Origin: a virus
Length of the DNA stretch: 35,851 bases
Reading direction: 5' to 3' (one strand)
Virus genome (UHGV): UHGV-0135983
A model generated the notes under the pieces. That model searched no databases, was not told the DNA's origin, and saw nothing but the letters and a program-made list of their open reading frames with translations. Position 1 is the stretch's first letter. Each line of letters begins with the position of its first letter. This document shows positions 1,184 through 35,851 of this stretch, piece by piece. The translations under genes and the position numbers were made by a program.

Positions 1184-3304
1184 TTAAGCGTTGAAACCAC
1201 CGACTCGAACTTTTAGCGTAGAGAGGTCAACATTAGCAGTTATGTTTAATACACCACTCCCCGCTGAAATAGAGAATAAGCGCCGTCCGCCTGACGTTCC
1301 GCCCCCCGCCGGTGGAGTGGTATCGAGTTCACCTGTGATCGATATTGAAATGGTACCCTCACGGTTAGCAACGAGTAGCTCTAAACATTCAGCCCAGGTG
1401 AATTGTGCTGACGACCATGCGTCAATAAAAATACGCTGAGTAGTTCGGTTTGGAATTGTGATGGATTTCACTTCCCCTGTATTTACCAGCCCCTGAAAAC
1501 GGGTTCCGTAATCTATCCAGCTGATACTGTACCCTGGCGACCCCGTTGTGGGATTTTGAGATGTATACCAGGTCTGAGTCCGCACTCCTGTATGACTGAT
1601 TGACTGGAGAGGTCGAGCAAACTGATCGCGGTGGATGTATGCATTCGCCCGTATACCATTACTTTGCAGATCTATATCTGCTGTTCGGGGGTTAGGATAT
1701 AAACCAGATCCCCCCACATCAAACATCGCATAATGATTTGCTACGGCGGGTATCCAGCCATTTCTGTCGAGGTTCCTGAAAAAATCTTCAAAGGCAAGCC
1801 AGTACGATTGCTGATGCCCAAACAAATTGGGGTGAACAGTCTGTATTTCCGGCGTCCGATTGAATAATGCCGTTTCGCCATATTTAGCTACAGCATCAAA
1901 CCAGTATTTTTCAACATCAATCAGCACACAGCCCATTTCTACCGCGATTTGCCTGATGGCATCGTTTCCACGCAGGAAGCGAACACCTGCCTGTATGTTT
2001 ACACCATTCCATTCAAACGTGACGTTTGACTCTGCCGCTGAAGGGATAATGTCCTCATCGGAAACAGGAAGTGGAGAAAATGATGGCCACACCTGATTAA
2101 CAGACGGCGGCATGCTCCAGCTGTACTCAGCTATATTTGGATGCGGTGTGGTTGTCAAAACAACATCACCGCCAGCCTCCCTGACTAAATTAATCGCGGC
2201 TCTAAGACGCTGCTTAAATCCATTTTCATTGAACGTTTGCCCGGCATTATAGTTTGCCGTTGGGAAATCATTCATACCATAGACAAAGAGCGCGATATCA
2301 GGATATACACCTTCTGCGACGACGCCAGACCACTGATTTACAATGAAGTTATTTATCGACGAACCATTAGCCCCCCTGTTTTCGAAAGTAAGAGGATAAA
2401 TTCCTTGTTTGTTAAGAGTTTTATTTAAGTATTCGAAAAACTTAGCGATAGGGGCTTGCGTTGCAGGATCTGGAAGTGTTGCACCCACTTGCACTGAACT
2501 ACCGAAACCGTAAGCTCTGAACAAATCCTGATAGCCGGTAACGCCATGCCGATAAGCTGTTAATTTATTAATAAACTTTGGAAACAGAGCCTGTGATGAG
2601 CCAGACGCAGCACGAATAGATGCCTCTACCGTTCTTCCTGTTTCAGTAGCAACTAAGCCAGCACCGTCCTTCGAAGCCAGCTTAATAGCCAGATCTGCAG
2701 TTTGAGTCTGTCCGGCGATCGGTACCGGGTTTCCCTGGTCATTAAATCCCAGAAGCATATTTGAACGCGGAGCCACCGGATAAAGCATGCCTACCTGATT
2801 TTCAGGAACGCGTAACGTACGGGAAAAGTTTACCTGTTCAGTTTGGATAACGTATTTTTTTGTAGCGGCGTCCTGATTATCAACAGGGTCCAGTAAATTG
2901 CTAATTCTGTATCCCTGAGCATTAAACGGCCCACCGGACAGCGGGCGAGTTATTGCCAGTCCGAGTTCGAGGAATGCCCGTTGGATAGCCATCCAGATAC
3001 GGTCAAAGTCCTTATTAATAGTATCCGCCAGTAAGTCCCCGTTATCCTGATAATCCGTTAACCGGAACGTCGGAACAACACGCTGTAACATAACGACAGC
3101 GCCATTCGCCGGCGGCGTCAGAAAGGAGATATCACCACCATCTTTATTTCCAACCCCCGCGACGGAATACCCACTGGTAACAATATTTCCGTTTATGCTT
3201 ACCTGCAGATCGCTGGCACTAATGATATAGAACTGGTACGTAAAAACGGTTGTCAGGCCGTTAGCCGTATAGATGTTATAGGGTATCTGGTTCGGTACCG
3301 ACAT
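1184..3304 (-). CDS. tail fiber / tailspike with T7 gp17-like N-terminal domain and possible SGNH-hydrolase-like central domain
   Basis: Start chosen at MSVPNQIPYNIYTANGLTTVFTYQFYI (GGAG RBS; longer ORF to 3367 would overlap the upstream gene); N-terminus has the T7 fiber-type pattern; central GFGSS / YGMND / VHPN motifs resemble SGNH esterase blocks. Confidence 0.7.
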   Translation of the reverse strand: MSVPNQIPYNIYTANGLTTVFTYQFYIISASDLQVSINGNIVTSGYSVAGVGNKDGGDISFLTPPANGAVVMLQRVVPTFRLTDYQDNGDLLADTINKDFDRIWMAIQRAFLELGLAITRPLSGGPFNAQGYRISNLLDPVDNQDAATKKYVIQTEQVNFSRTLRVPENQVGMLYPVAPRSNMLLGFNDQGNPVPIAGQTQTADLAIKLASKDGAGLVATETGRTVEASIRAASGSSQALFPKFINKLTAYRHGVTGYQDLFRAYGFGSSVQVGATLPDPATQAPIAKFFEYLNKTLNKQGIYPLTFENRGANGSSINNFIVNQWSGVVAEGVYPDIALFVYGMNDFPTANYNAGQTFNENGFKQRLRAAINLVREAGGDVVLTTTPHPNIAEYSWSMPPSVNQVWPSFSPLPVSDEDIIPSAAESNVTFEWNGVNIQAGVRFLRGNDAIRQIAVEMGCVLIDVEKYWFDAVAKYGETALFNRTPEIQTVHPNLFGHQQSYWLAFEDFFRNLDRNGWIPAVANHYAMFDVGGSGLYPNPRTADIDLQSNGIRANAYIHRDQFARPLQSISHTGVRTQTWYTSQNPTTGSPGYSISWIDYGTRFQGLVNTGEVKSITIPNRTTQRIFIDAWSSAQFTWAECLELLVANREGTISISITGELDTTPPAGGGTSGGRRLFSISAGSGVLNITANVDLSTLKVRVGGFNA

Positions 3305-3321
3305 ATGGGGAACTCCGGCGG

Positions 3322-4932
3322 CTAATAATCTACGGCGACCATGTGATCGCCATCGTTTGGTTGCCAATGTTCCCGCGCCTGTGCGGTCGGAATCCCGACC
3401 AATTTACCTATACGTACCGGAGTTGAGCTGATAGCACCGGAGCCGGAGTCGATAAAGTCATCGGGCTGATTAGTCAGCGCCGGGTTAAAGTCTCGCATCT
3501 GGTCGTACATTGGGCCGTCGAGCACGTCGGTGTGCGCCCAAAGGAACCGCGACGACAGCGGCGCTTCGAAGGCATCGAGGATGCGTTTCTGTTTATTGGT
3601 CACGCTGAATTCTTCCCGGACGCCGCAACCTGTACCCTTCAACGCCTGAATCAGCAATTTGCCGGCGAAGCTGCCCGGGCCGTTCACCTCGACGCAAATC
3701 AGGGGGATCTGATACTTCAACACCAGCTCTTTAATCTGCATCACCTGACCGCCGGTGATTTTGTCGTTGTCGTCAAATTCTGCCAGTTCGCCCGTAAGCC
3801 CCTGGCAAACATGCCAGTACAGATGCCCGCGCGCGTCGGTGAAAATCAGAGAGAACGCCGAGGCGTCGGCCTTAACTTTGCCGGTGGCCACATCCCACCA
3901 GGCGACAGCACCAACAATTTGCGTCTGGCCAAGCCACATCGAACAGGAGCGGTTCGCGTATCGGATTTCAGGCTGAACGTTGTATTCTCGGATACGGTCA
4001 GGATCAAGACGAACCTCGCCAACCGGTTTACTGTGCAGCTGGTACTGACTGTCCCATTCGTTAATTGTGCGAGTCTCGCGGCGGCGCTTTGTCATTTCCT
4101 CCGGAGTGAATCTTTCCGGCCATTCACAATCGGCGTAACAGTCAACCGTGGTACCGGGAGCCTCGGCAAACTCGATACCATCATCGTTAAGACGATAATC
4201 AACACCTTCAACGAGCAGTCGCGCGCCAATGTGAATACCGACGAAAACATATTCAGGCCGGAACGGTAACGAGTAACGGCTAGCGGTAGCCTGTTTTTCC
4301 TCGATGCGAAATTCTTTGCCGAATAGTTTGATGGTCAGACAGTCGGCGCCCATAGATTCAACCTCATCGTAAAGGCTATCGTGGGTATGCGGCGTGCCGA
4401 TAAACAGCTTTCGCCCGCCGGGGACAAGAATGTGTGTCTGTTCACCCAGACGATAACGCAGCTTTTCCCGCGCCTCCGGCGTCTGGATATTCCGGGGCAC
4501 TTCTACGTCATCGTTCTGACATTCATCGGCACGGGCCGAGGTGACGTTAGAGAGGATCCCCTTTGCGTACATGCTGCCGTTACGCATATCCAGCGAGCCG
4601 TTAACCCACCATTGCTCAACGGTTCCCTGTCCGTCGGGTAGCATACCTTTGGTCAGCGGATGATTGCGTAAAACGTTCTGCGTATCGCGGCTGGTTTTGT
4701 ACGCGGTGCCGTCAGCTTCAGACTGGTGAAGAATGCGGTACTGGCGGTTCTGGTAATATCGCCATGCGTTATACACCGCCAGAATGGTGGATTTTCCGAA
4801 GCCACGGAAACAGCGAAGCACCGCGAGATCCCCGCGGTGTTCCAGCCAGTGGCAGGCTCGATAATGGCAGTCGGGAACCTCCCACCCCATCCGCTCCGCC
4901 CATATGATGAAAAAGGCGACGAATGAAATCAT
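3322..4932 (-). CDS. terminase large subunit (putative)
   Basis: 536 aa; Walker A-like RGFGKSTILA near N-terminus, acidic Walker B-like ADECQNDD; sits between a small putative TerS and the tail fiber. Confidence 0.6.
   Translation of the reverse strand: MISFVAFFIIWAERMGWEVPDCHYRACHWLEHRGDLAVLRCFRGFGKSTILAVYNAWRYYQNRQYRILHQSEADGTAYKTSRDTQNVLRNHPLTKGMLPDGQGTVEQWWVNGSLDMRNGSMYAKGILSNVTSARADECQNDDVEVPRNIQTPEAREKLRYRLGEQTHILVPGGRKLFIGTPHTHDSLYDEVESMGADCLTIKLFGKEFRIEEKQATASRYSLPFRPEYVFVGIHIGARLLVEGVDYRLNDDGIEFAEAPGTTVDCYADCEWPERFTPEEMTKRRRETRTINEWDSQYQLHSKPVGEVRLDPDRIREYNVQPEIRYANRSCSMWLGQTQIVGAVAWWDVATGKVKADASAFSLIFTDARGHLYWHVCQGLTGELAEFDDNDKITGGQVMQIKELVLKYQIPLICVEVNGPGSFAGKLLIQALKGTGCGVREEFSVTNKQKRILDAFEAPLSSRFLWAHTDVLDGPMYDQMRDFNPALTNQPDDFIDSGSGAISSTPVRIGKLVGIPTAQAREHWQPNDGDHMVAVDY
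3385..3402 (-). promoter_or_regulatory. conserved late-junction element copy 2 (GGTCGGAATCCCGACCAA), inside terminase 3' end, upstream of tail fiber
   Basis: Same invariant 11-mer; lies within the last ~27 codons of the upstream CDS, 84 nt before the fiber ATG at 3304. Confidence 0.5.
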
Positions 4933-5270: not shown

Positions 5271-5317
5271 AAAAAAGCCCCGTGGTTATCCATAGGGCTA
5301 TAATGTGCCGGGCTAGA

Positions 5318-5333
5318 GGTCGGAATCCTGACT
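5318..5333 (-). promoter_or_regulatory. conserved late-junction element copy 3 (GGTCGGAATCCTGACT), upstream of putative TerS
   Basis: Same invariant 11-mer, 45 nt upstream of the ATG at 5270. Confidence 0.5.
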
Positions 5334-5404
5334 ATTGCATATGCAGCGATGTACGTATAAAACTAGCCGACATTAATATAATCATTTTCATTCAGAGGCT
5401 CCCT

Positions 5405-5842
5405 GTGAAAACTTTATTCCCCTTAATACTGTTTATCGTAACTTCTACCGTTTGCGCCAAAGAAGTTAAATATGACTTTCCTCCAGATGGGGAAATGGCA
5501 AAATCACTCAAACCAGAAATTGTTGGCGTGGCTAATTATGAAATGGTCAATAGAAGCGTGCGCTTAAAAGCTTTAGATGTTGGTGAAAAAAATGTTTCTC
5601 TCCTGGTAGTCATAGGTGCTACCGACACCAGAAAACCCGTTACTCAAGCTAACATCCCTGACAAACAATCAATCTCATTAACTAAACAGCAAATTGTGAA
5701 CAAATATTGTGCACCATTCGGGTATGGCAATTGGTACTTTGATGCCTTCAAACAGCGGGGTGTAAAACTGCACTATTACTTTTACTCGGCAGTAGACACC
5801 CCGTTATTTACATTCACGGTAAATAAATCTGATTGCGATTAA
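5405..5842 (+). CDS. secreted hypothetical protein (moron, opposite strand to virion genes)
   Basis: GTG start with AGAGG RBS 7 nt upstream; N-terminal signal peptide VKTLFPLILFIVTSTVCA; AT-rich relative to flanks; TATAAT-like boxes at 5299..5304 and 5377..5382; stop overlaps the convergent internal virion gene stop. Confidence 0.5.
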   Translation: MKTLFPLILFIVTSTVCAKEVKYDFPPDGEMAKSLKPEIVGVANYEMVNRSVRLKALDVGEKNVSLLVVIGATDTRKPVTQANIPDKQSISLTKQQIVNKYCAPFGYGNWYFDAFKQRGVKLHYYFYSAVDTPLFTFTVNKSDCD

Positions 5843-15008: not shown

Positions 15009-15920
15009 TTATGCTACGAAATCGATGGCGACTACTTTGTTTTCCGCTGCGCGGCCTGCACCATAGGACGCATCGACGGAAATCTGAATGGTGTTGTTTT
15101 TATCGCGGCGCGGGCCGATATCGACGTTGTACTCTTCGCCGGTACCAAAATGCACAGCAGATTTACACCAGGCTGCGGCGGTTTTGGTGGTTACAGCGGG
15201 ATCACCTGCTGAAGCAGAATCCAGTTTTTCATACGCCAGCCACTTAAAGCCCAGCCAGTTACCAGACACTGCGCCTTCCTGCAGCATTTTCACTGCCATA
15301 AAGTCGGCGCTGGTCAGCGTGGTATCGCTGAGGATTTGGGTCAGCATGTCGGCGTTGTAGGTGATATACAGCTCTTCACCGTTCTGCTCGTCACACTCGT
15401 TACGGCGGAACATGGCTTTCGCGGCGATCAGCTTCGCTTTGGTCATCCCTGTACCGCCAGCAACGATTTTCTGCGATGCAGGCAAGGCAACTGGAGCGTA
15501 CGCGCCAGTATTGGAGGTTTTACGCAGAACGGTATCGAGCAGCGCGCGATAAATAACATCGTCTTTTTTGCGGTTGGATGCGGCCAGCGTCAGCTGCAAA
15601 TATGGCCCCTGCGGGTCAGCCAGCAGTTTGCGCAGGTCGCGCTTTTCCACTGGCACGAATACGCCATAGTCAGCCATCAGCGCATTACGGGTGCCGGCAT
15701 CAGGCAGATCCCAGACGGTATCACCGAAACGCTCGGTGATCTGGGTCATTTCGATGGTACCCATATCGTTGATGGTGAACGACGCACCGGTAATATTGCC
15801 ACGGTCGTAAACAGCAGCTTGCAGGCGGGAATCCTTCTGCTGTGCGGCAATTTCGAAAGAATCATGGAACTGCTGAACAAACGCAGCGGTGATCATGTTC
15901 TTAGCGGTATCAAATGACAT
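15009..15920 (-). CDS. major capsid protein (T7 gp10-like)
   Basis: Start at MSFDTAKNMITAAF with GGAGTGA RBS; 303 aa; pattern ELYITYNADMLTQIL resembles gp10 VFYCDPDSYSAIL. Confidence 0.8.
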   Translation of the reverse strand: MSFDTAKNMITAAFVQQFHDSFEIAAQQKDSRLQAAVYDRGNITGASFTINDMGTIEMTQITERFGDTVWDLPDAGTRNALMADYGVFVPVEKRDLRKLLADPQGPYLQLTLAASNRKKDDVIYRALLDTVLRKTSNTGAYAPVALPASQKIVAGGTGMTKAKLIAAKAMFRRNECDEQNGEELYITYNADMLTQILSDTTLTSADFMAVKMLQEGAVSGNWLGFKWLAYEKLDSASAGDPAVTTKTAAAWCKSAVHFGTGEEYNVDIGPRRDKNNTIQISVDASYGAGRAAENKVVAIDFVA

Positions 15921-16068
15921 AACAATCACTCCAGAAAGTATCGCCTGCGGGGTATCGGTTTCCCGGCCCAAATCAGCACAATGCGGTTGGCGCTGGCGCA
16001 TTGCGGGAAAATCAGGTATCCGGCGTCCCCGCCGGGCTGGTTGTGGAGTGATTGTTAGCGAGGAGAGC

Positions 16069-16084
16069 GGTCGGAATCCCGACC
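16069..16084 (-). promoter_or_regulatory. conserved late-junction element copy 4 (GGTCGGAATCCCGACC), in capsid leader
   Basis: Same invariant 11-mer, ~150 nt upstream of the capsid ATG; leader also has a 12-bp inverted repeat pair at 15921..15932 and 16047..16058. Confidence 0.5.
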
Positions 16085-16109
16085 AAATGAGCGAAAGTAA
16101 GCCGTGCTG

Positions 16110-16994
16110 TTACCCTCTGGGTTCTTTTATCCTATAACCTGTGCCAGGCATGAATTCATCAATAACTCTTGCCGCGTGACCTATAACTCGAAACGCTGAG
16201 CGTGCTTCTTCATCGGTAATTTTAGTCGCTTTAGTCGGGTCATAATCAGGAGTTTGGTCATCGTCAAAATGTACTCGATAGCCAAATTTTGATATTTCTC
16301 TGAAAATGGAACTAACTGACCTATCAATAGTTGCCATAGTGTCCATTAATCTATTTTTATCCTCCTCAATTTTATTTTTTATTTTCTCATAAGGGCCTAG
16401 CTCATCTACTAAATCTTTAAGAGCATCCGACTTAGAATTTATTTCACCTTCAATTTCATTAAGTTTCCCTTCCGCCAACTCAAGCTTCGAACTTAAAATA
16501 TTAAATTGTTCTTCAGCTTCTTCATATGACTTCTTAATGCTCTCGATATCATGTGTAACTTTAGTAACCTTGAGTTCTTCTTCTGCATTCCTTTTTGCAA
16601 ACAGAGATGTTTGATAAGCTAGTGCGCTATCTGCTTTAGCTGTGTATTCAGCAATGATTTCACGAGCCTCACTCTCAGATTTTGCCCTTTTGATATCGTT
16701 ACCATCAGCGATTTTTTGCGCGCATCTTTGAAAAAAACTCACAGCATGACTAGCATAAGGAAAAAGAACGGCAATAATAAAACCCAAAAGGATAGGAGCA
16801 ACTACAGAATACCAAAAAATACATGGTTCACTTTTCACTTTAATGATTCTATCTTGTAGTTCTCCACTACCCATTAAAACTATCAATAAACTATCCCAGT
16901 TAAACCCCAGCCATGAGAGGACTATGAACCCGAAAAGAGGAGTGTTTATTCTTTGAATTAAAGTTTTCTTTACCGCATCAGCTAATTCGTCCAT
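16110..16994 (-). CDS. membrane-anchored coiled-coil protein (AT-rich moron between scaffold and capsid)
   Basis: 294 aa; two predicted TM helices then a long Glu/Lys-rich coiled-coil region; visibly AT-rich; AAGGG RBS; candidate promoter and an upstream terminator. Confidence 0.6.
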   Translation of the reverse strand: MDELADAVKKTLIQRINTPLFGFIVLSWLGFNWDSLLIVLMGSGELQDRIIKVKSEPCIFWYSVVAPILLGFIIAVLFPYASHAVSFFQRCAQKIADGNDIKRAKSESEAREIIAEYTAKADSALAYQTSLFAKRNAEEELKVTKVTHDIESIKKSYEEAEEQFNILSSKLELAEGKLNEIEGEINSKSDALKDLVDELGPYEKIKNKIEEDKNRLMDTMATIDRSVSSIFREISKFGYRVHFDDDQTPDYDPTKATKITDEEARSAFRVIGHAARVIDEFMPGTGYRIKEPRG

Positions 16995-17063
16995 ACGCTT
17001 ACCCTTATGAAGAAACTATCGAAGGATATTTAAGAGTAAAAGGCAAGAAAAGTCATTAACTTT

Positions 17064-17095
17064 AAATAGAAAAAGCCAGCGAAGTTATACTGGCC
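17064..17095 (-). terminator. putative intrinsic terminator after scaffold gene
   Basis: On - strand: GCCAG...CTGGC hairpin followed by TTTTTCTATTT. Confidence 0.45.
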
Positions 17096-17115
17096 TTTGA
17101 TATTACCGTGGCGTG

Positions 17116-17964
17116 TCACACTACGGTTTGCTCGCCGTAACGCTTCTGGTAGTACGCTTTAACCTGTGCAGATACGCGTTCATGGTCGGTATGCTTCGGA
17201 TTCATGTACGCTTCGGACTTCATCAGGTCGCGGATTGATTGCTGCTCTGCCGGGTTGCTGTCTGCGCCCGCTGGCGCGTCTTCCTGCATTTCCGCACCGA
17301 TTTTCGCCAGCATGCGGATCACCATCGGGTTATTGCCGATTTCATCAATGCGGCCGCGATCACCTTCATCGGTCAGGGAATTGAACGCGCGGAAAGCCAG
17401 ACCGATATTCTTGTTAAATTCCGCGTCAGTCTTCCAGACTTCGCGCAGCTGCGTGGTGGCCGCCTCCGAATCCAGCGCCGCGGCGCCGTTGACCAGTTCA
17501 GGCGCAATCTGCGCGTATTCGCTGATAATAAATCCCATCTGATCGTTAGTGATGCCCTTGGCGTGCGCCGACTTCATGAATGATTGCATGCGGGGATCGG
17601 CCTTGAACTCGTCCCAGTTGAAGCCCTCGGCCTTCACCTCAGGTGCATAATCATCTGCCGTTTTCGGCGGCGCGTCGCCGCTGCCCATGCGCTTTTCAAG
17701 GTGCGAGTAAGCATGCGCCAGTTTGCGGGCAGAGCCTTCAATGTCGAGTTTTCCACCTTCGCCCATAACGCGGTATTTTTCAGGTATCCAGTCATTCGCG
17801 CCCGGTTCGCCCGCTCCGGTGCTGAGAAGTGTATTGCCAGCAGAATTATCAGCGCCCTGATTTTCAGTACCACCGCCATTGCCACCATCATTACCCCCTG
17901 TGCTGCCTGCTGGCGCTTCGGCGCCCTGCTCGGCGTTCATGAATAAGTGTTTAATCTTCCACAT
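17116..17964 (-). CDS. scaffolding protein (T7 gp9-like)
   Basis: 282 aa, acidic, Gly/Ala-rich N-terminus, between portal and capsid. Confidence 0.6.
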   Translation of the reverse strand: MWKIKHLFMNAEQGAEAPAGSTGGNDGGNGGGTENQGADNSAGNTLLSTGAGEPGANDWIPEKYRVMGEGGKLDIEGSARKLAHAYSHLEKRMGSGDAPPKTADDYAPEVKAEGFNWDEFKADPRMQSFMKSAHAKGITNDQMGFIISEYAQIAPELVNGAAALDSEAATTQLREVWKTDAEFNKNIGLAFRAFNSLTDEGDRGRIDEIGNNPMVIRMLAKIGAEMQEDAPAGADSNPAEQQSIRDLMKSEAYMNPKHTDHERVSAQVKAYYQKRYGEQTVV

Positions 17965-18184
17965 CGTCGTTTACTCCATCTACACGGTTGATTTGCATCA
18001 GAATGAAATCGAGCACGGCACGTTGTCCGGCCCGGTAACAGGTTTCGCGGTCGCCCTCGGCGCCGCCGGGAACGTATGCCGCACGCCCGAATCGGCGCGT
18101 TAAATCATCCAGTACCTGCGTGCCGCCCGGCATTTCCTCGAAAATGCGTTTGTAGTCCGCCGGTGATACTTGTTTAGTAGCCAT
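17951..18184 (-). CDS. hypothetical small protein between portal and scaffold
   Basis: 77 aa ORF, start overlaps portal stop. Confidence 0.4.
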   Translation of the reverse strand: MATKQVSPADYKRIFEEMPGGTQVLDDLTRRFGRAAYVPGGAEGDRETCYRAGQRAVLDFILMQINRVDGVNDDVED

Positions 18185-19806
18185 TAACCCCCCGCTACTC
18201 GTTGGCCCAGTGCTGCGCCTGCCTGCTGCCCTGCGGCGGTTGCCGCTTCGCTACCTGCCTGCATCATTAGCGCTTGCCCTGCCTGTTGCTGCTGCGCCTG
18301 CTGGCGCTGCTGGCGAAGTTGCTCGACGGCATCAGACGAGCGAATGACTTTCGCCGGTACGCCCAGCGCATCCGCTATCACGCGGGTCGCTTCGTCGGTG
18401 TCGATTAGGTCGGTGACTTCTGGTGATACCTGCGCCAGATTGGCCACGTTCGCGCCAAGGCGTTCAATAGCGGTGACGTTTTCCAGCTGCTGCGCGCGGG
18501 CAAGCGGCGAGATATAGCGCACGTTGAAATTGGCGTTTTGCAGGCTATCCGGCGCTGGCGGGAATACACCGGCGCGGAATGCCAGACCGAAACAGCGTTC
18601 TACCAGTGGTTGCAGGTATTCAGCCTGGAATCGGCCATAGACCGGGCCGAGCAGCTGGCGGATCAGCGCGACACGCACATGCACTTCGGTAGCGGTCATT
18701 GCCGGGCCGTCCTGCGGTTGCAGCTGGTCGGCCATCATGATTTTGCGGATCGACGCCTGCAGGCGTTCTTCTGCAGTAAACGCCACGTTGAAATCGGCGC
18801 CGGTGAGCAACGGTTTCATGCTGTCTACGCTGTTCGCCACGATGATGCGGCGCGGGCCGACCTTGACCGTGCGCGGATTGAGTACGCCGTCATCTTCGGC
18901 AATCCACATCCCGGCGATAGCCAGATCCTGCGCGGCTTTCTCCATGCGCTTCGTTTCGTTCAGCTCTTTGCAGTCCGGCAGCGCGTCGTATACCGGGCCG
19001 ATACCGTACGGCGTGCCGGGGATTTTCATCCAGCGCGGTACGCAGCAGGGGAATTCGTGATAGCCGGATTCGCGCACGATGAGCTTGCCGCTCACCTCCA
19101 CGTTGTACGATGCAAAGCGCAGGTTTTTAGCCAGGCGCGCATTCACCACGTAGTTTTCACGCGGGAAAATGCAGTGCAGGAAGTCGAATTTGTCATCCGG
19201 CTTTTTGGCGGCTGCGTCGCGAATCTTCTTGCTGACCTTATCCGCGCCGAATTCTTTAATCGCCTGCTCTGCGGTGAGCTGGTAGCGGCGATAAATCGTG
19301 TCCACGATGCCGTCGCGACGGGTGGAAGTGACAAAGCACTGCGCCAGCGGCCACTGCTGGAACGAGAATCCGCCCTCTTCGCGGTCTTCGTCGATGTACA
19401 GCGCAAACCAGCCAGCACACACCACATCGAGATTCACCTCGTAGCCTTCGGCGTCGAAATTGGCGGCGTGGATGTTTTCCCATACCAGCGTTGCGCAGGT
19501 GGACAACCACGCGGCGGCATCATCCGGCAGCGATTCGCTGTCGAGGTTCAGCCACTGCGCGTTTGCCGGGGTCATGCCGGACATGAGAGCAGACGCCAGC
19601 ATGCGGGCGCTGTCGGTGGCCGTGCCGTCAAGCAGCCGTGCCACCTTCGATTTCGCGCTCTGTGCGTCCAGCACCTCATCGGATAGCCCCGCGCCGCGCA
19701 GCGGATAGGTGTAGTCGTAGCATTCCCGCCAGACACTTTCGTGCACCTGTCGGTTGGCTTTCAGCGTATCGGCACGCTTAACCAGCTTTACGGCGAGTTC
19801 ATCCAT
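18184..19806 (-). CDS. portal / head-to-tail connector (T7 gp8-like)
   Basis: 540 aa (T7 gp8 is 536 aa); position upstream of scaffold and capsid. Confidence 0.75.
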   Translation of the reverse strand: MDELAVKLVKRADTLKANRQVHESVWRECYDYTYPLRGAGLSDEVLDAQSAKSKVARLLDGTATDSARMLASALMSGMTPANAQWLNLDSESLPDDAAAWLSTCATLVWENIHAANFDAEGYEVNLDVVCAGWFALYIDEDREEGGFSFQQWPLAQCFVTSTRRDGIVDTIYRRYQLTAEQAIKEFGADKVSKKIRDAAAKKPDDKFDFLHCIFPRENYVVNARLAKNLRFASYNVEVSGKLIVRESGYHEFPCCVPRWMKIPGTPYGIGPVYDALPDCKELNETKRMEKAAQDLAIAGMWIAEDDGVLNPRTVKVGPRRIIVANSVDSMKPLLTGADFNVAFTAEERLQASIRKIMMADQLQPQDGPAMTATEVHVRVALIRQLLGPVYGRFQAEYLQPLVERCFGLAFRAGVFPPAPDSLQNANFNVRYISPLARAQQLENVTAIERLGANVANLAQVSPEVTDLIDTDEATRVIADALGVPAKVIRSSDAVEQLRQQRQQAQQQQAGQALMMQAGSEAATAAGQQAGAALGQRVAGG

Positions 19807-22686: not shown

Positions 22687-23520
22687 TCATGCTGCACGCT
22701 CCTGTTTCTGTTGTGCTGCAGGGTTAAGCCAGAGGCATTCAGTACGGACTTTCGTACCGCGCCCGGCACTGATGCGCGATGCTTTCTCGGTCTTCGCCCA
22801 GCCGGATAGCATGTCGTTGTAGACATCAGTGTCGTAACCGCTAATCATCACCATGCCTTTCATCGTTCTGGACACAGCGAGCAATTGCTCATGCCCTTCA
22901 ACGGTCATTTCATGGTTGTAATAACGATTTTTCTGCACTCGTGTTTCCGGCATATATGGCGGATCGATGTAATGCAGCGTCGTTTCTGCGTCGTGGGCGC
23001 GCATTACCGCCAGAGCGTCTTTGTTCTCGATGATGACTCCTTGAAGGCGCTGACAGACAACAGCGAGATTAGCCGGGTAACGCTCCCATAGATGCGCCGC
23101 CGTAGCGTATTTGCGTTTGCTGTCGCTGCGGAAGCCGGATTGACCGCCGATACCTGCGGCAGAGCCGAACCCCATACAGGCACGAACCACCATGCGGCGG
23201 GCGCGTTCGATAGGGTCAGTGGCTGGTTGCTGAGCGTGACAGAACTCATCGCGTGAATACGGGGTCAGGCAACAGGCATCCTGCAGGCGCTGGTTTAATT
23301 CAGGGTCGCGCAATACACGAAACAGGTTCACCACCTCGCCGTCGAGATCGTTGTACACCTCTGAATAGCTACGCGCTTTTTGTAGCAATACGCCAGCAGC
23401 CCCGCCGAACGGTTCGACATAGCAGACGTGTTCCGGCATCTGCTCGATAATCCAGTGTGCCAGTCGGAATTTCCCGCCGTGATATCTGATTACAGGATGC
23501 CTGATTTTTTTTTCAATCAT
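22687..23520 (-). CDS. Dam-type DNA N6-adenine methyltransferase
   Basis: 277 aa; YHGGK, FGGAAGV (AdoMet motif I) and DPPY (motif IV); A9 homopolymer in codons 3-6. Confidence 0.85.
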   Translation of the reverse strand: MIEKKIRHPVIRYHGGKFRLAHWIIEQMPEHVCYVEPFGGAAGVLLQKARSYSEVYNDLDGEVVNLFRVLRDPELNQRLQDACCLTPYSRDEFCHAQQPATDPIERARRMVVRACMGFGSAAGIGGQSGFRSDSKRKYATAAHLWERYPANLAVVCQRLQGVIIENKDALAVMRAHDAETTLHYIDPPYMPETRVQKNRYYNHEMTVEGHEQLLAVSRTMKGMVMISGYDTDVYNDMLSGWAKTEKASRISAGRGTKVRTECLWLNPAAQQKQERAA

Positions 23521-23699: not shown

Positions 23700-24290
23700 C
23701 TATGCTACCTCCCCGATATATTCTGCAATGCCCGGCAGCAGCGCCACCGCTGGCGATTCACACTGGTTGCCCCACACGTCGAAACCATGCGACGACTGGC
23801 GGGCGAATAACTCAATACGCGGTACATCGCCCAGCAGCTGCACCAGCTTTTCGCGCACGATATCCGGTTTGCGCGAATGCTCCAGACGCGGGGCCGTGAA
23901 TGACTGAACGATCCCGGCATCCAGCCGGGCGGGTAATTTCCCCTGCACAGCGAAAAGGCAATCTTCACTGTTCGCCCTGGTCATATGGCCCATTCCTATG
24001 GCCAGTTTGTCGGTCTGCCGGCTGTAGCATTTGTTCCACGTAAAGCCTTTCATGGTCATCAGGCGGAAGCCCCACGCCTCGACTACTCGCAACGCCTCCA
24101 GCGGCTGAGTCGGTACCCACCACATAGCCAGCAGGCAGTTTTCAGCGGCCAGTTCCCAGACCGGAAGACGGCAGATATCGAGCACAGTCATGGTCTGGTA
24201 TTTATGCCCGACGCCACGCTCGCCATCTTTGGCTTTATCGCGGTACGTCCAGGGCGGATCGCAATAAATTAAAGTGTATTTTTCATTCAT
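23700..24290 (-). CDS. MT-A70-family DNA N6-adenine methyltransferase
   Basis: 196 aa; IYCDPPW catalytic motif; start overlaps upstream stop as TAATG. Confidence 0.8.
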   Translation of the reverse strand: MNEKYTLIYCDPPWTYRDKAKDGERGVGHKYQTMTVLDICRLPVWELAAENCLLAMWWVPTQPLEALRVVEAWGFRLMTMKGFTWNKCYSRQTDKLAIGMGHMTRANSEDCLFAVQGKLPARLDAGIVQSFTAPRLEHSRKPDIVREKLVQLLGDVPRIELFARQSSHGFDVWGNQCESPAVALLPGIAEYIGEVA

Positions 24291-24817
24291 TATTTCGAAT
24301 CCTTAATAATATTGGCAACACGATTAAATGATTCATACGTTTCAATGTTTCTTGAGAAATTAAGGAGCCTTGTCTTACCAGATGGATAAACCCGACCTGA
24401 ATAAGTCTTGTTCTGCGTTCTAAATTCAATTGTTTGTTTTATAGAACCAATATTTTTATCACTAACAATCTCACTAGCAGCCATAAAACCCACTTTTTCC
24501 TCTTCAATTACAACGAACGCGTAAAAGTCACAGGAACCATAATTAGTTGCTCTGCAAGTTCCTTTCCCTGTTCTGGTGCTGAACCGAAAAACATTCTTCG
24601 ACTTTCCATAGTCGCGCATACACAAGGTTGTTCTGACTTGCCCTCTTAATAAATACTCGCCAGATTGAACAACTATATCGTATGGCAATCCTTGGTCTGA
24701 GGGGAAACATATAAAACCCTGCTTACTGAGTTTAAATATGGCGTAATACTCACCACATTTGCCAAGTTCTAACTCGCTCGAAAAATCGCTTATGTTTATA
24801 TCAATAGTCCCATTCAC
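24290..24817 (-). CDS. AT-rich hypothetical protein with Hjc/PD-(D/E)xK-like N-terminal pattern
   Basis: 175 aa; G-x-x-GE...LxxxGF...YDIVV...QVR spacing resembles archaeal-type Holliday-junction-resolvase fold with ExK replaced by QVR; GC well below flanks. Confidence 0.5.
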   Translation of the reverse strand: MNGTIDINISDFSSELELGKCGEYYAIFKLSKQGFICFPSDQGLPYDIVVQSGEYLLRGQVRTTLCMRDYGKSKNVFRFSTRTGKGTCRATNYGSCDFYAFVVIEEEKVGFMAASEIVSDKNIGSIKQTIEFRTQNKTYSGRVYPSGKTRLLNFSRNIETYESFNRVANIIKDSK

Positions 24818-29330: not shown

Positions 29331-29744
29331 ATGGACATGAAAAAATTGACCTTTAACGATCGCATTACATCGAGACGGAAAGAGCTTGGCTTAACCCAAC
29401 AGCAGCTCGCCGATGCCGTTGGCATATCTGGCGTAAGCGTCTACAAGTGGGAAGCAGGTATTAACACCCCAAAAGGGCAAAATCTGTTTTCTCTCGCTGA
29501 GGCTCTTCGTTGCTCTCCGACATGGTTACTTAACGGAACCGATAGCGATGAACCGTTGAAGGCGGAAGACCTTTTACCTCGGTTAGATGATCGCCAAAAG
29601 CTATTGCTTGATCTTTTTGACTCCCTACCTGAATCAGAAAAAGATAGACACATCAATGAGTTGAAAGATAAAGTTGACGGATTCCAGCGATTGTTTGATG
29701 AGTTACTTTTGGTAAAAAAGAAAAAAAACACTCCAAAAAAATAA
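29331..29744 (+). CDS. CI/RacR-like repressor (HTH_XRE, no S24 peptidase domain)
   Basis: 137 aa; HTH LGLTQQQLADAVGISGVSVYKWEAG; possibly leaderless from the ATG at 29337. Confidence 0.75.
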   Translation: MDMKKLTFNDRITSRRKELGLTQQQLADAVGISGVSVYKWEAGINTPKGQNLFSLAEALRCSPTWLLNGTDSDEPLKAEDLLPRLDDRQKLLLDLFDSLPESEKDRHINELKDKVDGFQRLFDELLLVKKKKNTPKK

Positions 29745-34831: not shown

Positions 34832-35851
34832 ATGGGAAGGAGAAGAAAAGATCCAACAGATAATAAATTGCCACCTCGTGTTTCAAAAACCAAAACTCGG
34901 TATTACTACAAACCCACAGCACGAGAAACTATAACGCTAGGGCCAATAACTCTTTCAATGTCTGCATTGTGGAAACGTTATGAGGAAGAAAGACGAAATC
35001 ACTCAGGAGTAATGACGTTTGAAAAGCTCTGGGGAATGTTTTTAAAGAGCGCCTATTACACCGAACTCGCAATTCGTACCCAAAAAGATTATTTGCAACA
35101 TCAAAAAAAATTATTAGTCGTTTTTGGAAAAATGAAAGCTGATCTTATCAAGCCCGAAGAAGTTCGCCAGTTTATGGATCGACGTGGCCTAAAAAGCAAA
35201 AATCAGGCTAATCAGGAAATGAGTAGTATGTCGAGGGTGTTTCGATGGGGTTTTGAACGTGGTTATGTAAAAGGCAACCCATGTGCCGGGGTTAGTAAGT
35301 TTTCGTTAAAGGCACGTGAACAATATATTACCGATGAAGATTATCTGGTTATCTATAAAAATGCTGATTCAGTTGTGCGGGCTGCAATGGAAATATCATA
35401 CCTGTGTGCTGCCCGCCAGGCTGACGTGTTGGGATTGTGCTGGATGCAGATAACAGACAAAGGGATATTCATTCAACAGGGTAAGACGGGGAAAAAGCAG
35501 ATCAAGGTCTGGACCCCTCGCCTTCATCAAGCCTTCGTTACGGCACAAATAGATTGCCCCAAACTGTCTGCTAACGGACTAGTGATCTACAACAACGATA
35601 AAGGCCAGTTTATCCGTAAGACGTTCAATAATCGCTGGCTTAAAGCCGTACGCGCAGCACAAAACGAATTGGGGCGACAACTGGACTATACATTTCACGA
35701 TATCAAAGCGAAGGGGATTTCAGATTTCGAGGGTAGCAGTAAGGACAAGCAGATGTTCAGTGGCCACAAGACGGAAAGTCAGGTTCTGGTGTATGACAGA
35801 AAGGTACAAATAAGCCCTACTTTGAATCTACCCGTAATTGGCGGTGATTGA
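34832..35851 (+). CDS. int: tyrosine integrase (lambda Int family)
   Basis: 339 aa; N-terminal arm-binding-like region, C-terminal catalytic region with conserved R...H-x-x-R...Y arrangement; stop is the final codon of the window. Confidence 0.9.
   Translation: MGRRRKDPTDNKLPPRVSKTKTRYYYKPTARETITLGPITLSMSALWKRYEEERRNHSGVMTFEKLWGMFLKSAYYTELAIRTQKDYLQHQKKLLVVFGKMKADLIKPEEVRQFMDRRGLKSKNQANQEMSSMSRVFRWGFERGYVKGNPCAGVSKFSLKAREQYITDEDYLVIYKNADSVVRAAMEISYLCAARQADVLGLCWMQITDKGIFIQQGKTGKKQIKVWTPRLHQAFVTAQIDCPKLSANGLVIYNNDKGQFIRKTFNNRWLKAVRAAQNELGRQLDYTFHDIKAKGISDFEGSSKDKQMFSGHKTESQVLVYDRKVQISPTLNLPVIGGD

Follow-up and report, generated by a model that had tools for sequence, protein, structure and literature searches.

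A low-GC, moron-like cassette inserted between scaffold and capsid genes in a temperate podophage encodes a candidate membrane-anchored coiled-coil protein

The AT-rich cassette and its insertion site

We analyzed virus genome UHGV-0135983, a stretch of 35,851 nucleotides (nt; hereafter the window) that corresponds to a near-complete temperate podophage genome. Our subject is an open reading frame (ORF) of 294 amino acids (aa), which lies between a gene for a 282-aa protein, called 'scaffold' by position only, and the gene for the major capsid protein (Table 1). A preliminary description had reported a 294-aa ORF at this scaffold–capsid position and had described it as a low-GC island, and both points hold. 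The GC content of the ORF is 0.368, versus 0.52 for the window and 0.54–0.61 for the flanks, and no other 885-nt stretch of the entire window is as low (minimum at 16205, z = –3.0). At third codon positions, GC is 0.27 in the ORF versus 0.60–0.72 in the capsid, scaffold and portal genes. Comparison of the window with an 87%-identical Klebsiella allele gave a dN/dS of 0.27 over 85 substitutions, with values of 0.25, 0.31 and 0.19 for the N-terminal domain, the central stalk and the C-terminus, respectively. The corresponding ratios for the capsid and portal genes were 0.06 and 0.02. These data suggest that the ORF is a functional gene under purifying selection, evolving several times faster than the virion genes. 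A recombination breakpoint was found inside the ORF, at ~16550, when the window was compared with Klebsiella prophage L003 (related loci carry L numbers). The two are 94–100% identical up to ~codon 150 of the ORF, with the scaffold gene at 100%; beyond this codon and into the capsid gene, identity falls to ~78–90%.

Two E. coli prophages, L001 and L002, have flanks 86–93% identical to the window, and both are without the ORF. Homology to these prophages ends ~10 nt past the scaffold stop and restarts at a conserved capsid leader. At the insert site, one of them has ~45 bp and the other a different filler of ~300 bp; L002 supplies the empty site, with the moron absent at the equivalent position. 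We also surveyed this slot in 80 IMG/VR loci retrieved by capsid protein, 78 of which were usable. An empty scaffold–capsid gap of 206–221 bp was seen in 26/78 loci, and the remaining loci carry cargo of at least eight unrelated families, in either orientation. The ORF family occupies the slot in 3/78 of these capsid-matched loci. A megablast search of the region against the phage collection gave no match. The cassette is an insertion into a recurrent scaffold–capsid hotspot, of which our literature searches found no account.

In the empty layout, the scaffold stop is followed by ~23 nt, a hairpin (GCCAGC-N7-GCTGGC-T6) and the capsid leader. This terminator divides the slot into two sub-sites, A upstream and B downstream of the hairpin. 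The commonest cargo of sub-site A is co-oriented, has normal GC, starts 16–34 nt after the scaffold stop and shares one Shine–Dalgarno (SD) sequence (GAGGAAAGACCA-ATG). Because of this shared SD and the position upstream of the hairpin, sub-site A cargo appears to be part of the late operon, beside the capsid gene. It matches PF13876 (23 loci), the Acb2/Tad1 hairpin family PF24729 (8 loci) and the Tad2-like family PF11195 (3 loci), with Pfam E-values of 1e-16 to 1e-33. The first of these is the anti-CBASS sponge family Acb4, and PF11195 corresponds to Tad2 (bioRxiv 10.1101/2024.12.30.630793, 10.1101/2025.07.12.664507). Loci with sponge cargo fall among L010–L089 (e.g. L019:~3520–3790, L053 and L061), and the equivalent site in the window is 17099–17115. 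Sub-site B holds every copy of the ORF family in the slot, together with several AT-rich ORFs on the opposite strand. The latter were observed in L012, L015, L016, L020, L021, L029, L031, L037, L069 and L085. They include a 124-aa family, a 221-aa protein (phrog_23516), proteins of 118 and 150 aa, and a 180-aa protein with an N-terminal transmembrane (TM) helix and a charged helix; Pfam and PADLOC searches with this opposite-strand cargo gave no match.

Several features of the cassette point to expression of its own. A terminator upstream of the ORF had been proposed at 17064..17095, and such a hairpin is indeed found, at 17098..17071. It has the form GCCAG-N10-CTGGC followed by T5, with a folding energy (dG) of –13.4 kcal/mol (z = –3.6), and an equivalent GCCAG...CTGGC-T-run hairpin occurs in the empty sites and upstream of all family members in the slot. 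The hairpin is predicted to insulate the cassette from the upstream late genes. The preliminary description had also read a promoter as ATGACT-N18-TAAATA. A promoter candidate does lie there, but the hexamers had been placed one base off, the conserved form being ATGACT-N17-TTAAAT. Four lineages (window/L003, L008, L009 and L006), with proteins 33–45% identical, have a motif of the type (A/G)TGAC(T/A)-N17-TT(A/T)AAT 61–68 nt before the ATG; the promoter spacers differ in sequence and are always 17 nt long. In the whole window, RTGACW-N17-TTWAAT matches once, at the candidate promoter, versus 0.02 matches expected. The cassette looks autonomous because the hairpin lies upstream and because promoter hexamers and 17-nt spacing are conserved among proteins of such low identity. 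That it forms an autonomous unit, or moron, as proposed earlier, is further consistent with the empty-site relatives, the compositional island and the lack of the gene in most relatives. Among the moron hallmarks summarized previously (PMC3594210), absence from relatives and deviant composition were both found, and a downstream terminator belonging to the gene itself was not. We conclude that the region is most probably a horizontally acquired, transcriptionally autonomous-looking moron in a temperate podophage. The gene would be dispensable for the phage, because most relatives do without it.

Table 1. Position of the ORF, its predicted parts and signals, and the adjoining features
Feature	Position	Strand	Details
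Inserted cassette, ~1.0 kb	16094..17106	–	Boundaries from alignment with E. coli prophages L001 and L002
ORF	16110..16994	–	ATG start, 294 aa; between the 282-aa gene and the capsid gene
Codons 1–95, conserved membrane domain	16710..16994	–	Predicted amphipathic helix, TM1 (19–41), loop helix, start of TM2
Codons 96–235, long charged helix continuous with TM2	16290..16709	–	Presumed oligomeric coiled-coil stalk; variable in the family
Codons 236–294 and stop, linker and C-terminal helix (261–281)	16110..16289	–	Conserved in closest alleles only
SD-like TAAGGGT	17001..17007	–	7 nt before ATG; read from sequence
Candidate sigma-70 promoter	17028..17056	–	–35 ATGACT (17056–17051), N17, –10 TTAAAT (17033–17028)
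Intrinsic-terminator-like hairpin, AAAGGCCAG-N10-CTGGCTTTTT	17070..17098	–	Terminator scan and RNA fold
282-aa 'scaffold' protein	17116–17964	–	Upstream of ORF; stop at 17116; phrog_3742
T7-type portal	18184–19806	–	Upstream flank of ORF; PF12236
Bbp19-like gene		–	Upstream flank of ORF, beside portal
Conserved structured capsid leader, ~170 nt	15921..16093	–	Downstream edge of slot, outside insert
Major capsid protein		–	Downstream flank of ORF; PF19821, 4e-68

The protein and its family

The protein had been described as having two N-terminal TM helices and a long charged coiled coil. Two hydrophobic segments are present, and the second is a strong TM candidate (TM2, residues 58–85, peak KD19 hydropathy 2.43). 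The first (TM1, residues 19–42) is marginal, with a KD19 value of 1.74, so this half of the prediction stands less firmly. The coiled coil is borne out by heptad periodicity at residues 137–250 and by an AlphaFold2 (AF2) model. The model was built from a 78-sequence alignment and has a mean confidence score (pLDDT) of 84, superseding an 8-sequence run with a pLDDT of 68. Residues 1–100, predicted with pLDDT 84–96, start with an amphipathic helix, after which come TM1, which has a kink, a short helix in the loop, and TM2. TM2 extends into the stalk as one continuous helix, residues 59–235, of ~26 nm. After residue 235 come a poorly predicted linker (pLDDT 39–70) and a final helix, 261–281. From the 177-residue single helix we infer an oligomeric coiled coil. 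Both ends of the protein are most simply placed in the cytoplasm; with this topology, ~70% of the modeled protein would be helix on the cytoplasmic side, and only a loop of ~15 residues would face the periplasm.

Close relatives are rare: among 5.8 billion proteins they make up 8 clusters at 90% identity, with sources in Klebsiella, Serratia and metagenomes. Every close relative with a known context sits in the same scaffold–capsid slot of one prophage lineage. The slot position is kept even at 33% protein identity, where the capsid is 92% identical, and an intact frame of ~290 aa is kept across alleles down to this level. More distant relatives are numerous. An exhaustive profile search returned 254 representatives (50%-identity clusters) at E ≤ 1e-10; a word-indexed profile search gave mainly fragments. 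Nearly all members are 190–380 aa long (median 295 aa) and align from residue 1. Eight residues (R15, P19, G22, W28, N32, W33, P67 and P79) are at least 90% conserved among 78 diverse members, and all are found in the ORF. The tail is poorly conserved, with an EKRDQ fraction of 0.39, and the C-terminal part has a family occupancy of 0.56. With its 294 aa and a charged helical tail directly after the second hydrophobic helix, the ORF is typical of the family. GC is 0.33–0.39 throughout the family, although the host phages range from 0.40 to 0.57; such uniform AT-richness is typical of shuttled accessory genes.

The sole catalogued relatives are PHROGs 4780 (E = 1e-15), 13369 (9e-11) and 35327 (1.5e-8), which match over residues 1 to ~200 and have no functional annotation. 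These are true sequence relatives, with the same N-terminal two-helix membrane domain and helical tail; the ORF's closest sub-family differs in being confined to one slot of one prophage lineage. Source annotations of family members read 'hypothetical' or 'coiled-coil domain-containing'. Pfam gave no above-threshold match for the ORF, its distant homologues or the 78 family members, only coiled-coil noise, and the same noise was all that NCBIfam returned. Searches of PDB sequences with the whole protein and with an N-domain profile found nothing, and fold searches found nothing specific. In PADLOC-DB v2.0, weak matches (E ≥ 1e-4) were to coiled-coil parts of LmuB, JetC, PbeC, DndD and ZorA, and a PADLOC scan of the distant homologues likewise gave coiled-coil noise. 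Across the library scans, noise matches included MG280, EzrA, SMC, LmuB, JetC and ZorA. Literature searches returned no description of the family. Remote homology and structure prediction, both suggested in the preliminary description, gave no validated relative and a two-helix domain with a long helix.

All members whose context was examined are accessory cargo of phages or prophages; the family extends over prophages of Klebsiella, E. coli, Serratia, Yersinia, Citrobacter and Vibrio. Phages and prophages of Uetakevirus type carry the family gene on the opposite strand between terminase and portal. Opposite-strand inserts were also seen in lambdoid P-nin regions, one of them near Lit-like Peptidase_U49, NADAR and Panacea genes. 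A Vibrio inovirus carries a member in its accessory region, and a Klebsiella prophage has one at its end, beside the integrase; another is on a 72-kb phage-like Nissabacter contig, where the context is uninformative. In Yersinia, a member is located downstream of a CI-like repressor and co-oriented with it, which is where rexAB lies in lambda. In a P2-like prophage, the gene lies between gpA and gpQ, adjoining an AIPR gene. This interval is the P2 old/tin defence hotspot as defined by Rousset et al. (PMC9122126). Taken together, these data show that the ORF is one of a large family, as yet uncatalogued, that is associated with accessory and defence hotspots of prophages.

Known or suspected genes for defence and counter-defence were also noted in related prophages (L008:654–2292, L105:11443–12258, L097:4659–8282 and L103:5295–6983). 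These comprise a Beta_protein and P4 cII pair (Gop-beta-cII-like), TIR_2, Lit-like Peptidase_U49, NADAR, PRTase-CE and SocA/Panacea genes, plus the AIPR gene in the P2 hotspot.

The late module, the capsid leader and other islands in the window

Lysogeny genes in the window include an integrase (34832–35851) and a helix-turn-helix repressor (29331–29744), and DnaB helicase and methyltransferase genes are also present. The late module is on the minus strand and is of T7/BPP-1 type, including portal, capsid and nozzle. Along with the genes of Table 1, it encodes tubular tail proteins A and B, a GNAT protein, internal virion proteins, terminase, a tail fibre, an endolysin and a spanin. The lysis genes, endolysin and Rz-like spanin, are at 1–968, 15 kb from the ORF. 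In the tail fibre (1184–3367, minus strand), an N-terminal adaptor domain of T7 type is joined to a GDSL/SGNH esterase domain, a combination suggestive of receptor destruction by deacetylation.

The capsid gene actually begins at ATG 15920 (303 aa, MSFDTAKN...), as in relatives and their annotation. The listed 330-aa capsid ORF (15009–16001) is over-extended, and its surplus 27 codons fall in the structured leader. This leader is kept in all relatives regardless of cargo and has an RNA fold z of –2.5. One hairpin in the leader is GGUCGGGAUUCCGACC, and another shows compensatory changes at 4–5 pairs among 31 relatives. Between AACAAUCACUCCA and the capsid SD region, UGGAGUGAUUGUU, there is a long-range stem. 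The leader may act in translational control or as a processing element of RNase III type. Rfam gave no match in the window, leader included.

Two further AT-rich islands were noted. An opposite-strand ORF within the late operon (5282–5842, plus strand), where GC falls to 0.38, encodes a signal-peptide-like stretch, LFPLILFIVTSTVCA followed by KE. Pfam and PHROG searches with this ORF gave no match, and it may be a second moron, with a secreted product. An AT-rich pair consists of an MT-A70 methyltransferase gene (23700–24817, minus strand; 9e-23) immediately followed by a gene for a PD-(D/E)XK endonuclease-like protein (22687–23520), whose match of 1e-5 is slightly below the cutoff. A separate D12/Dam methylase gene is close by, and the pair may represent a phage-borne, restriction-modification-like module.

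Candidate function and comparison with known systems

The preliminary description had proposed superinfection exclusion or abortive infection. This idea is supported by association, through the hotspot contexts of the family, and not by homology to validated defence proteins. The ORF is very probably an accessory gene expressed in the lysogen. We place an anti-phage function of some kind at even or marginally better than even, and our favoured explanation overall, to which we give about an even chance, is that of a lysogen-protecting moron with a membrane-acting exclusion or abortive-infection role. In the mechanism we envisage, the gene would be expressed from the repressed prophage, and the protein would insert in the inner membrane with both ends cytoplasmic, oligomerising through its stalk. 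At the membrane's cytoplasmic face, some component of an infecting phage would be recognised by the fast-evolving cytoplasmic stalk and tail. The conserved two-TM module would then compromise the membrane (abortive infection) or block completion of genome entry, and the lysogen would be protected against other phages. A conserved membrane domain with a variable tail would fit an effector-plus-specificity design and resembles single-protein sensor–effector defences. Even so, this specific sensor–effector mechanism is rather doubtful. It is possible, though short of an even chance, that the ORF represents a new and widespread single-gene anti-phage family (membrane effector plus stalk sensor) within a terminator-partitioned hotspot, where sponges would be expressed late and the defence gene in the lysogen.

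Several observations weigh against this favoured explanation. Searches of PADLOC, Pfam, NCBIfam and PDB linked the ORF to no validated exclusion or defence protein, either by sequence or by fold. TM1 is just marginally hydrophobic, and a cytoplasmic stalk of 200 aa is unlike the small known entry blockers. The candidate promoter fails a strict sigma-70 consensus scan, and the sub-branch L033/L043/L034 has a different leader, which is without it. In the slot, the gene is co-oriented with the late operon. A terminator follows the gene in L006 and L008; none does in the window, L003 or L009, and in the window the capsid leader begins ~20 nt past the stop. Given the co-orientation and the lack of a downstream terminator, late transcription of the ORF is also conceivable, and the message may continue into the capsid leader. 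Anti-defence cargo predominates in the hotspot, so location alone does not tell the gene's side. Finally, decayed copies exist. The slot copy of L034 (~2885–3930) is frameshifted, with 133 aa before a change of frame, and some E. coli Uetakevirus-type copies are split into 163 + 105–109 aa (L094–L096:6001–6818). These broken copies are also what one would expect of a decaying, non-functional ORF, junk in a recombination hotspot. We regard that explanation as highly improbable and effectively refuted by the selection and conservation data, namely the dN/dS of the ORF, a frame intact to 33% identity, at least 254 representatives with eight near-invariant residues, and a confident AF2 model.

The main rival is pure superinfection exclusion of the SieA, HK97 gp15 or T4 Imm type, in which phage DNA or ejection proteins are blocked at the inner membrane with no killing. 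Precedents favour it, in that HK97 gp15 is also an inner-membrane-protein moron inside a structural operon (PMC3594210) and the inner-membrane protein SieA of P22 is expressed from the prophage and exists as very divergent alleles (PMC10883804). The host podovirus has internal/ejection proteins of T7 type, which a membrane protein with a cytoplasmic stalk could encounter on the inner side, and the contexts of family members are of lysogen type. Yet known entry blockers are small (about 60–165 aa) and mainly embedded in the membrane, whereas most of the modeled ORF product is cytoplasmic helix; moreover, the SieA motif FxRYPxEAxxFNK is absent, and no Pfam match to the YebO/gp15 family was found. 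We therefore consider a pure entry block unlikely. Somewhat less likely again is lysogenic conversion unrelated to defence, with a membrane-anchored coiled coil that, like EzrA-like or PspA-like proteins or prophage division modulators, would alter the envelope, division or stress physiology of the host. An N-terminal anchor with a long cytoplasmic coiled coil does resemble EzrA-type regulators, weak sub-threshold matches to EzrA, DUF948, PspA/Vipp1 and MG280 were seen, and morons have many functions (PMC3594210). But those matches all score far under the family cutoffs and lie in the coiled-coil portion, which is of low complexity, while the conserved membrane domain matches nothing. The recurrent placement in defence and accessory hotspots, beside AIPR, Lit-like and toxin–antitoxin-like genes, also argues against it.

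Lower still in our ranking is a lytic-cycle role, be it counter-defence, lysis timing or membrane remodelling, or exclusion during lytic growth only. Co-orientation with the late operon, the lack of a terminator before the capsid leader in the window, and the Acb4, Acb2/Tad1-like and Tad2-like sponges of the neighbouring sub-site are what such a role would predict. However, the ORF follows the terminator and has its own conserved candidate promoter, whereas the sponges use the operon SD upstream of the terminator. Elsewhere, family members are opposite to the late genes or in a repressor operon. The window has a separate endolysin/spanin cassette, and the ORF product resembles no known sponge or anti-defence protein.

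Three other identities were considered. A conserved structural or assembly protein is excluded, as most relatives are without the gene (the family occupying 3/78 loci) and the homology is coiled-coil noise. A holin or lysis protein is disfavoured by the endolysin/spanin cassette at 1–968 and by the absence of the gene from most relatives. An anti-defence sponge (Acb2/Tad1, Tad2 or Acb4) was rejected, as there is no match to PF24729, PF11195 or PF13876 and both architecture and sub-site differ.

If the ORF is an exclusion or abortive-infection factor, it adds a compact single-gene, membrane-based defence family, whose spread is relevant to host range when phage therapy targets Klebsiella and E. 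coli. The allele series in the same slot (87% to 33% identity), together with the domain signature, is ready material for specificity-swap experiments. The locus itself is a clean natural case of one phage hotspot divided by a terminator into two units, a late-expressed counter-defence (sponge) site and an autonomously expressed site. Such a terminator split could sharpen guilt-by-location predictions in phage genomes.

Comparison with known systems helps to place the protein. ZorA of the Zorya system is a MotA/ExbB-like multi-pass protein whose long cytoplasmic helical tail is thought to relay an envelope signal inward, and it works with ZorB, ZorC and ZorD. The ORF product shares with ZorA a membrane-embedded N-terminal part and a very long cytoplasmic helical tail. 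It differs in having two helices and no partner genes, and the PADLOC match to ZorA is coiled-coil noise (E = 0.006). The Acb4 (PF13876), Acb2/Tad1-hairpin (PF24729) and Tad2 (PF11195) proteins share the scaffold–capsid hotspot of sister prophages. These sponges are small, soluble, of normal GC, encoded upstream of the terminator, late co-transcribed and devoted to counter-defence (bioRxiv 10.1101/2024.12.30.630793, 10.1101/2025.07.12.664507), whereas the ORF encodes a predicted membrane protein, is AT-rich, lies downstream of the terminator and has a candidate promoter of its own.

Among membrane proteins, HK97 gp15 (PMC3594210) is likewise an extra late-operon gene of deviant GC, with its own expression signals; its phage is temperate and enterobacterial, and its product is an inner-membrane protein. 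Gp15 is small, single-pass and YebO-like, however, with no coiled-coil stalk, it lies among tail genes, and it has no sequence similarity to the ORF. P22 SieA is also a prophage-expressed podovirus inner-membrane protein with highly divergent alleles, and it blocks entry through action on ejection proteins (PMC10883804). The ORF product shares neither the size of SieA (162–164 aa) nor its three TM helices nor its cytoplasmic FxRYPxEAxxFNK motif. The SieA family as a whole spans about 160–200 aa with three or four TM helices (PMC10883804), and the ORF product, with 294 aa and two hydrophobic segments, falls outside it. PdpSau and lactococcal AbiP (PMC10127798) offer another parallel: a single prophage protein, similar in size (278 aa), that is anchored in the membrane by its N-terminus and has a cytoplasmic domain, is encoded beside late/lysis genes and causes abortive infection with membrane depolarisation. 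In this case, the protein has one TM helix and an OB-fold nucleic-acid-binding domain, is from Gram-positive hosts and has no sequence similarity to the ORF. In placement, the ORF resembles the HK97 gp15 moron, and in size and layout PdpSau/AbiP; it is unlike small entry blockers such as SieA.

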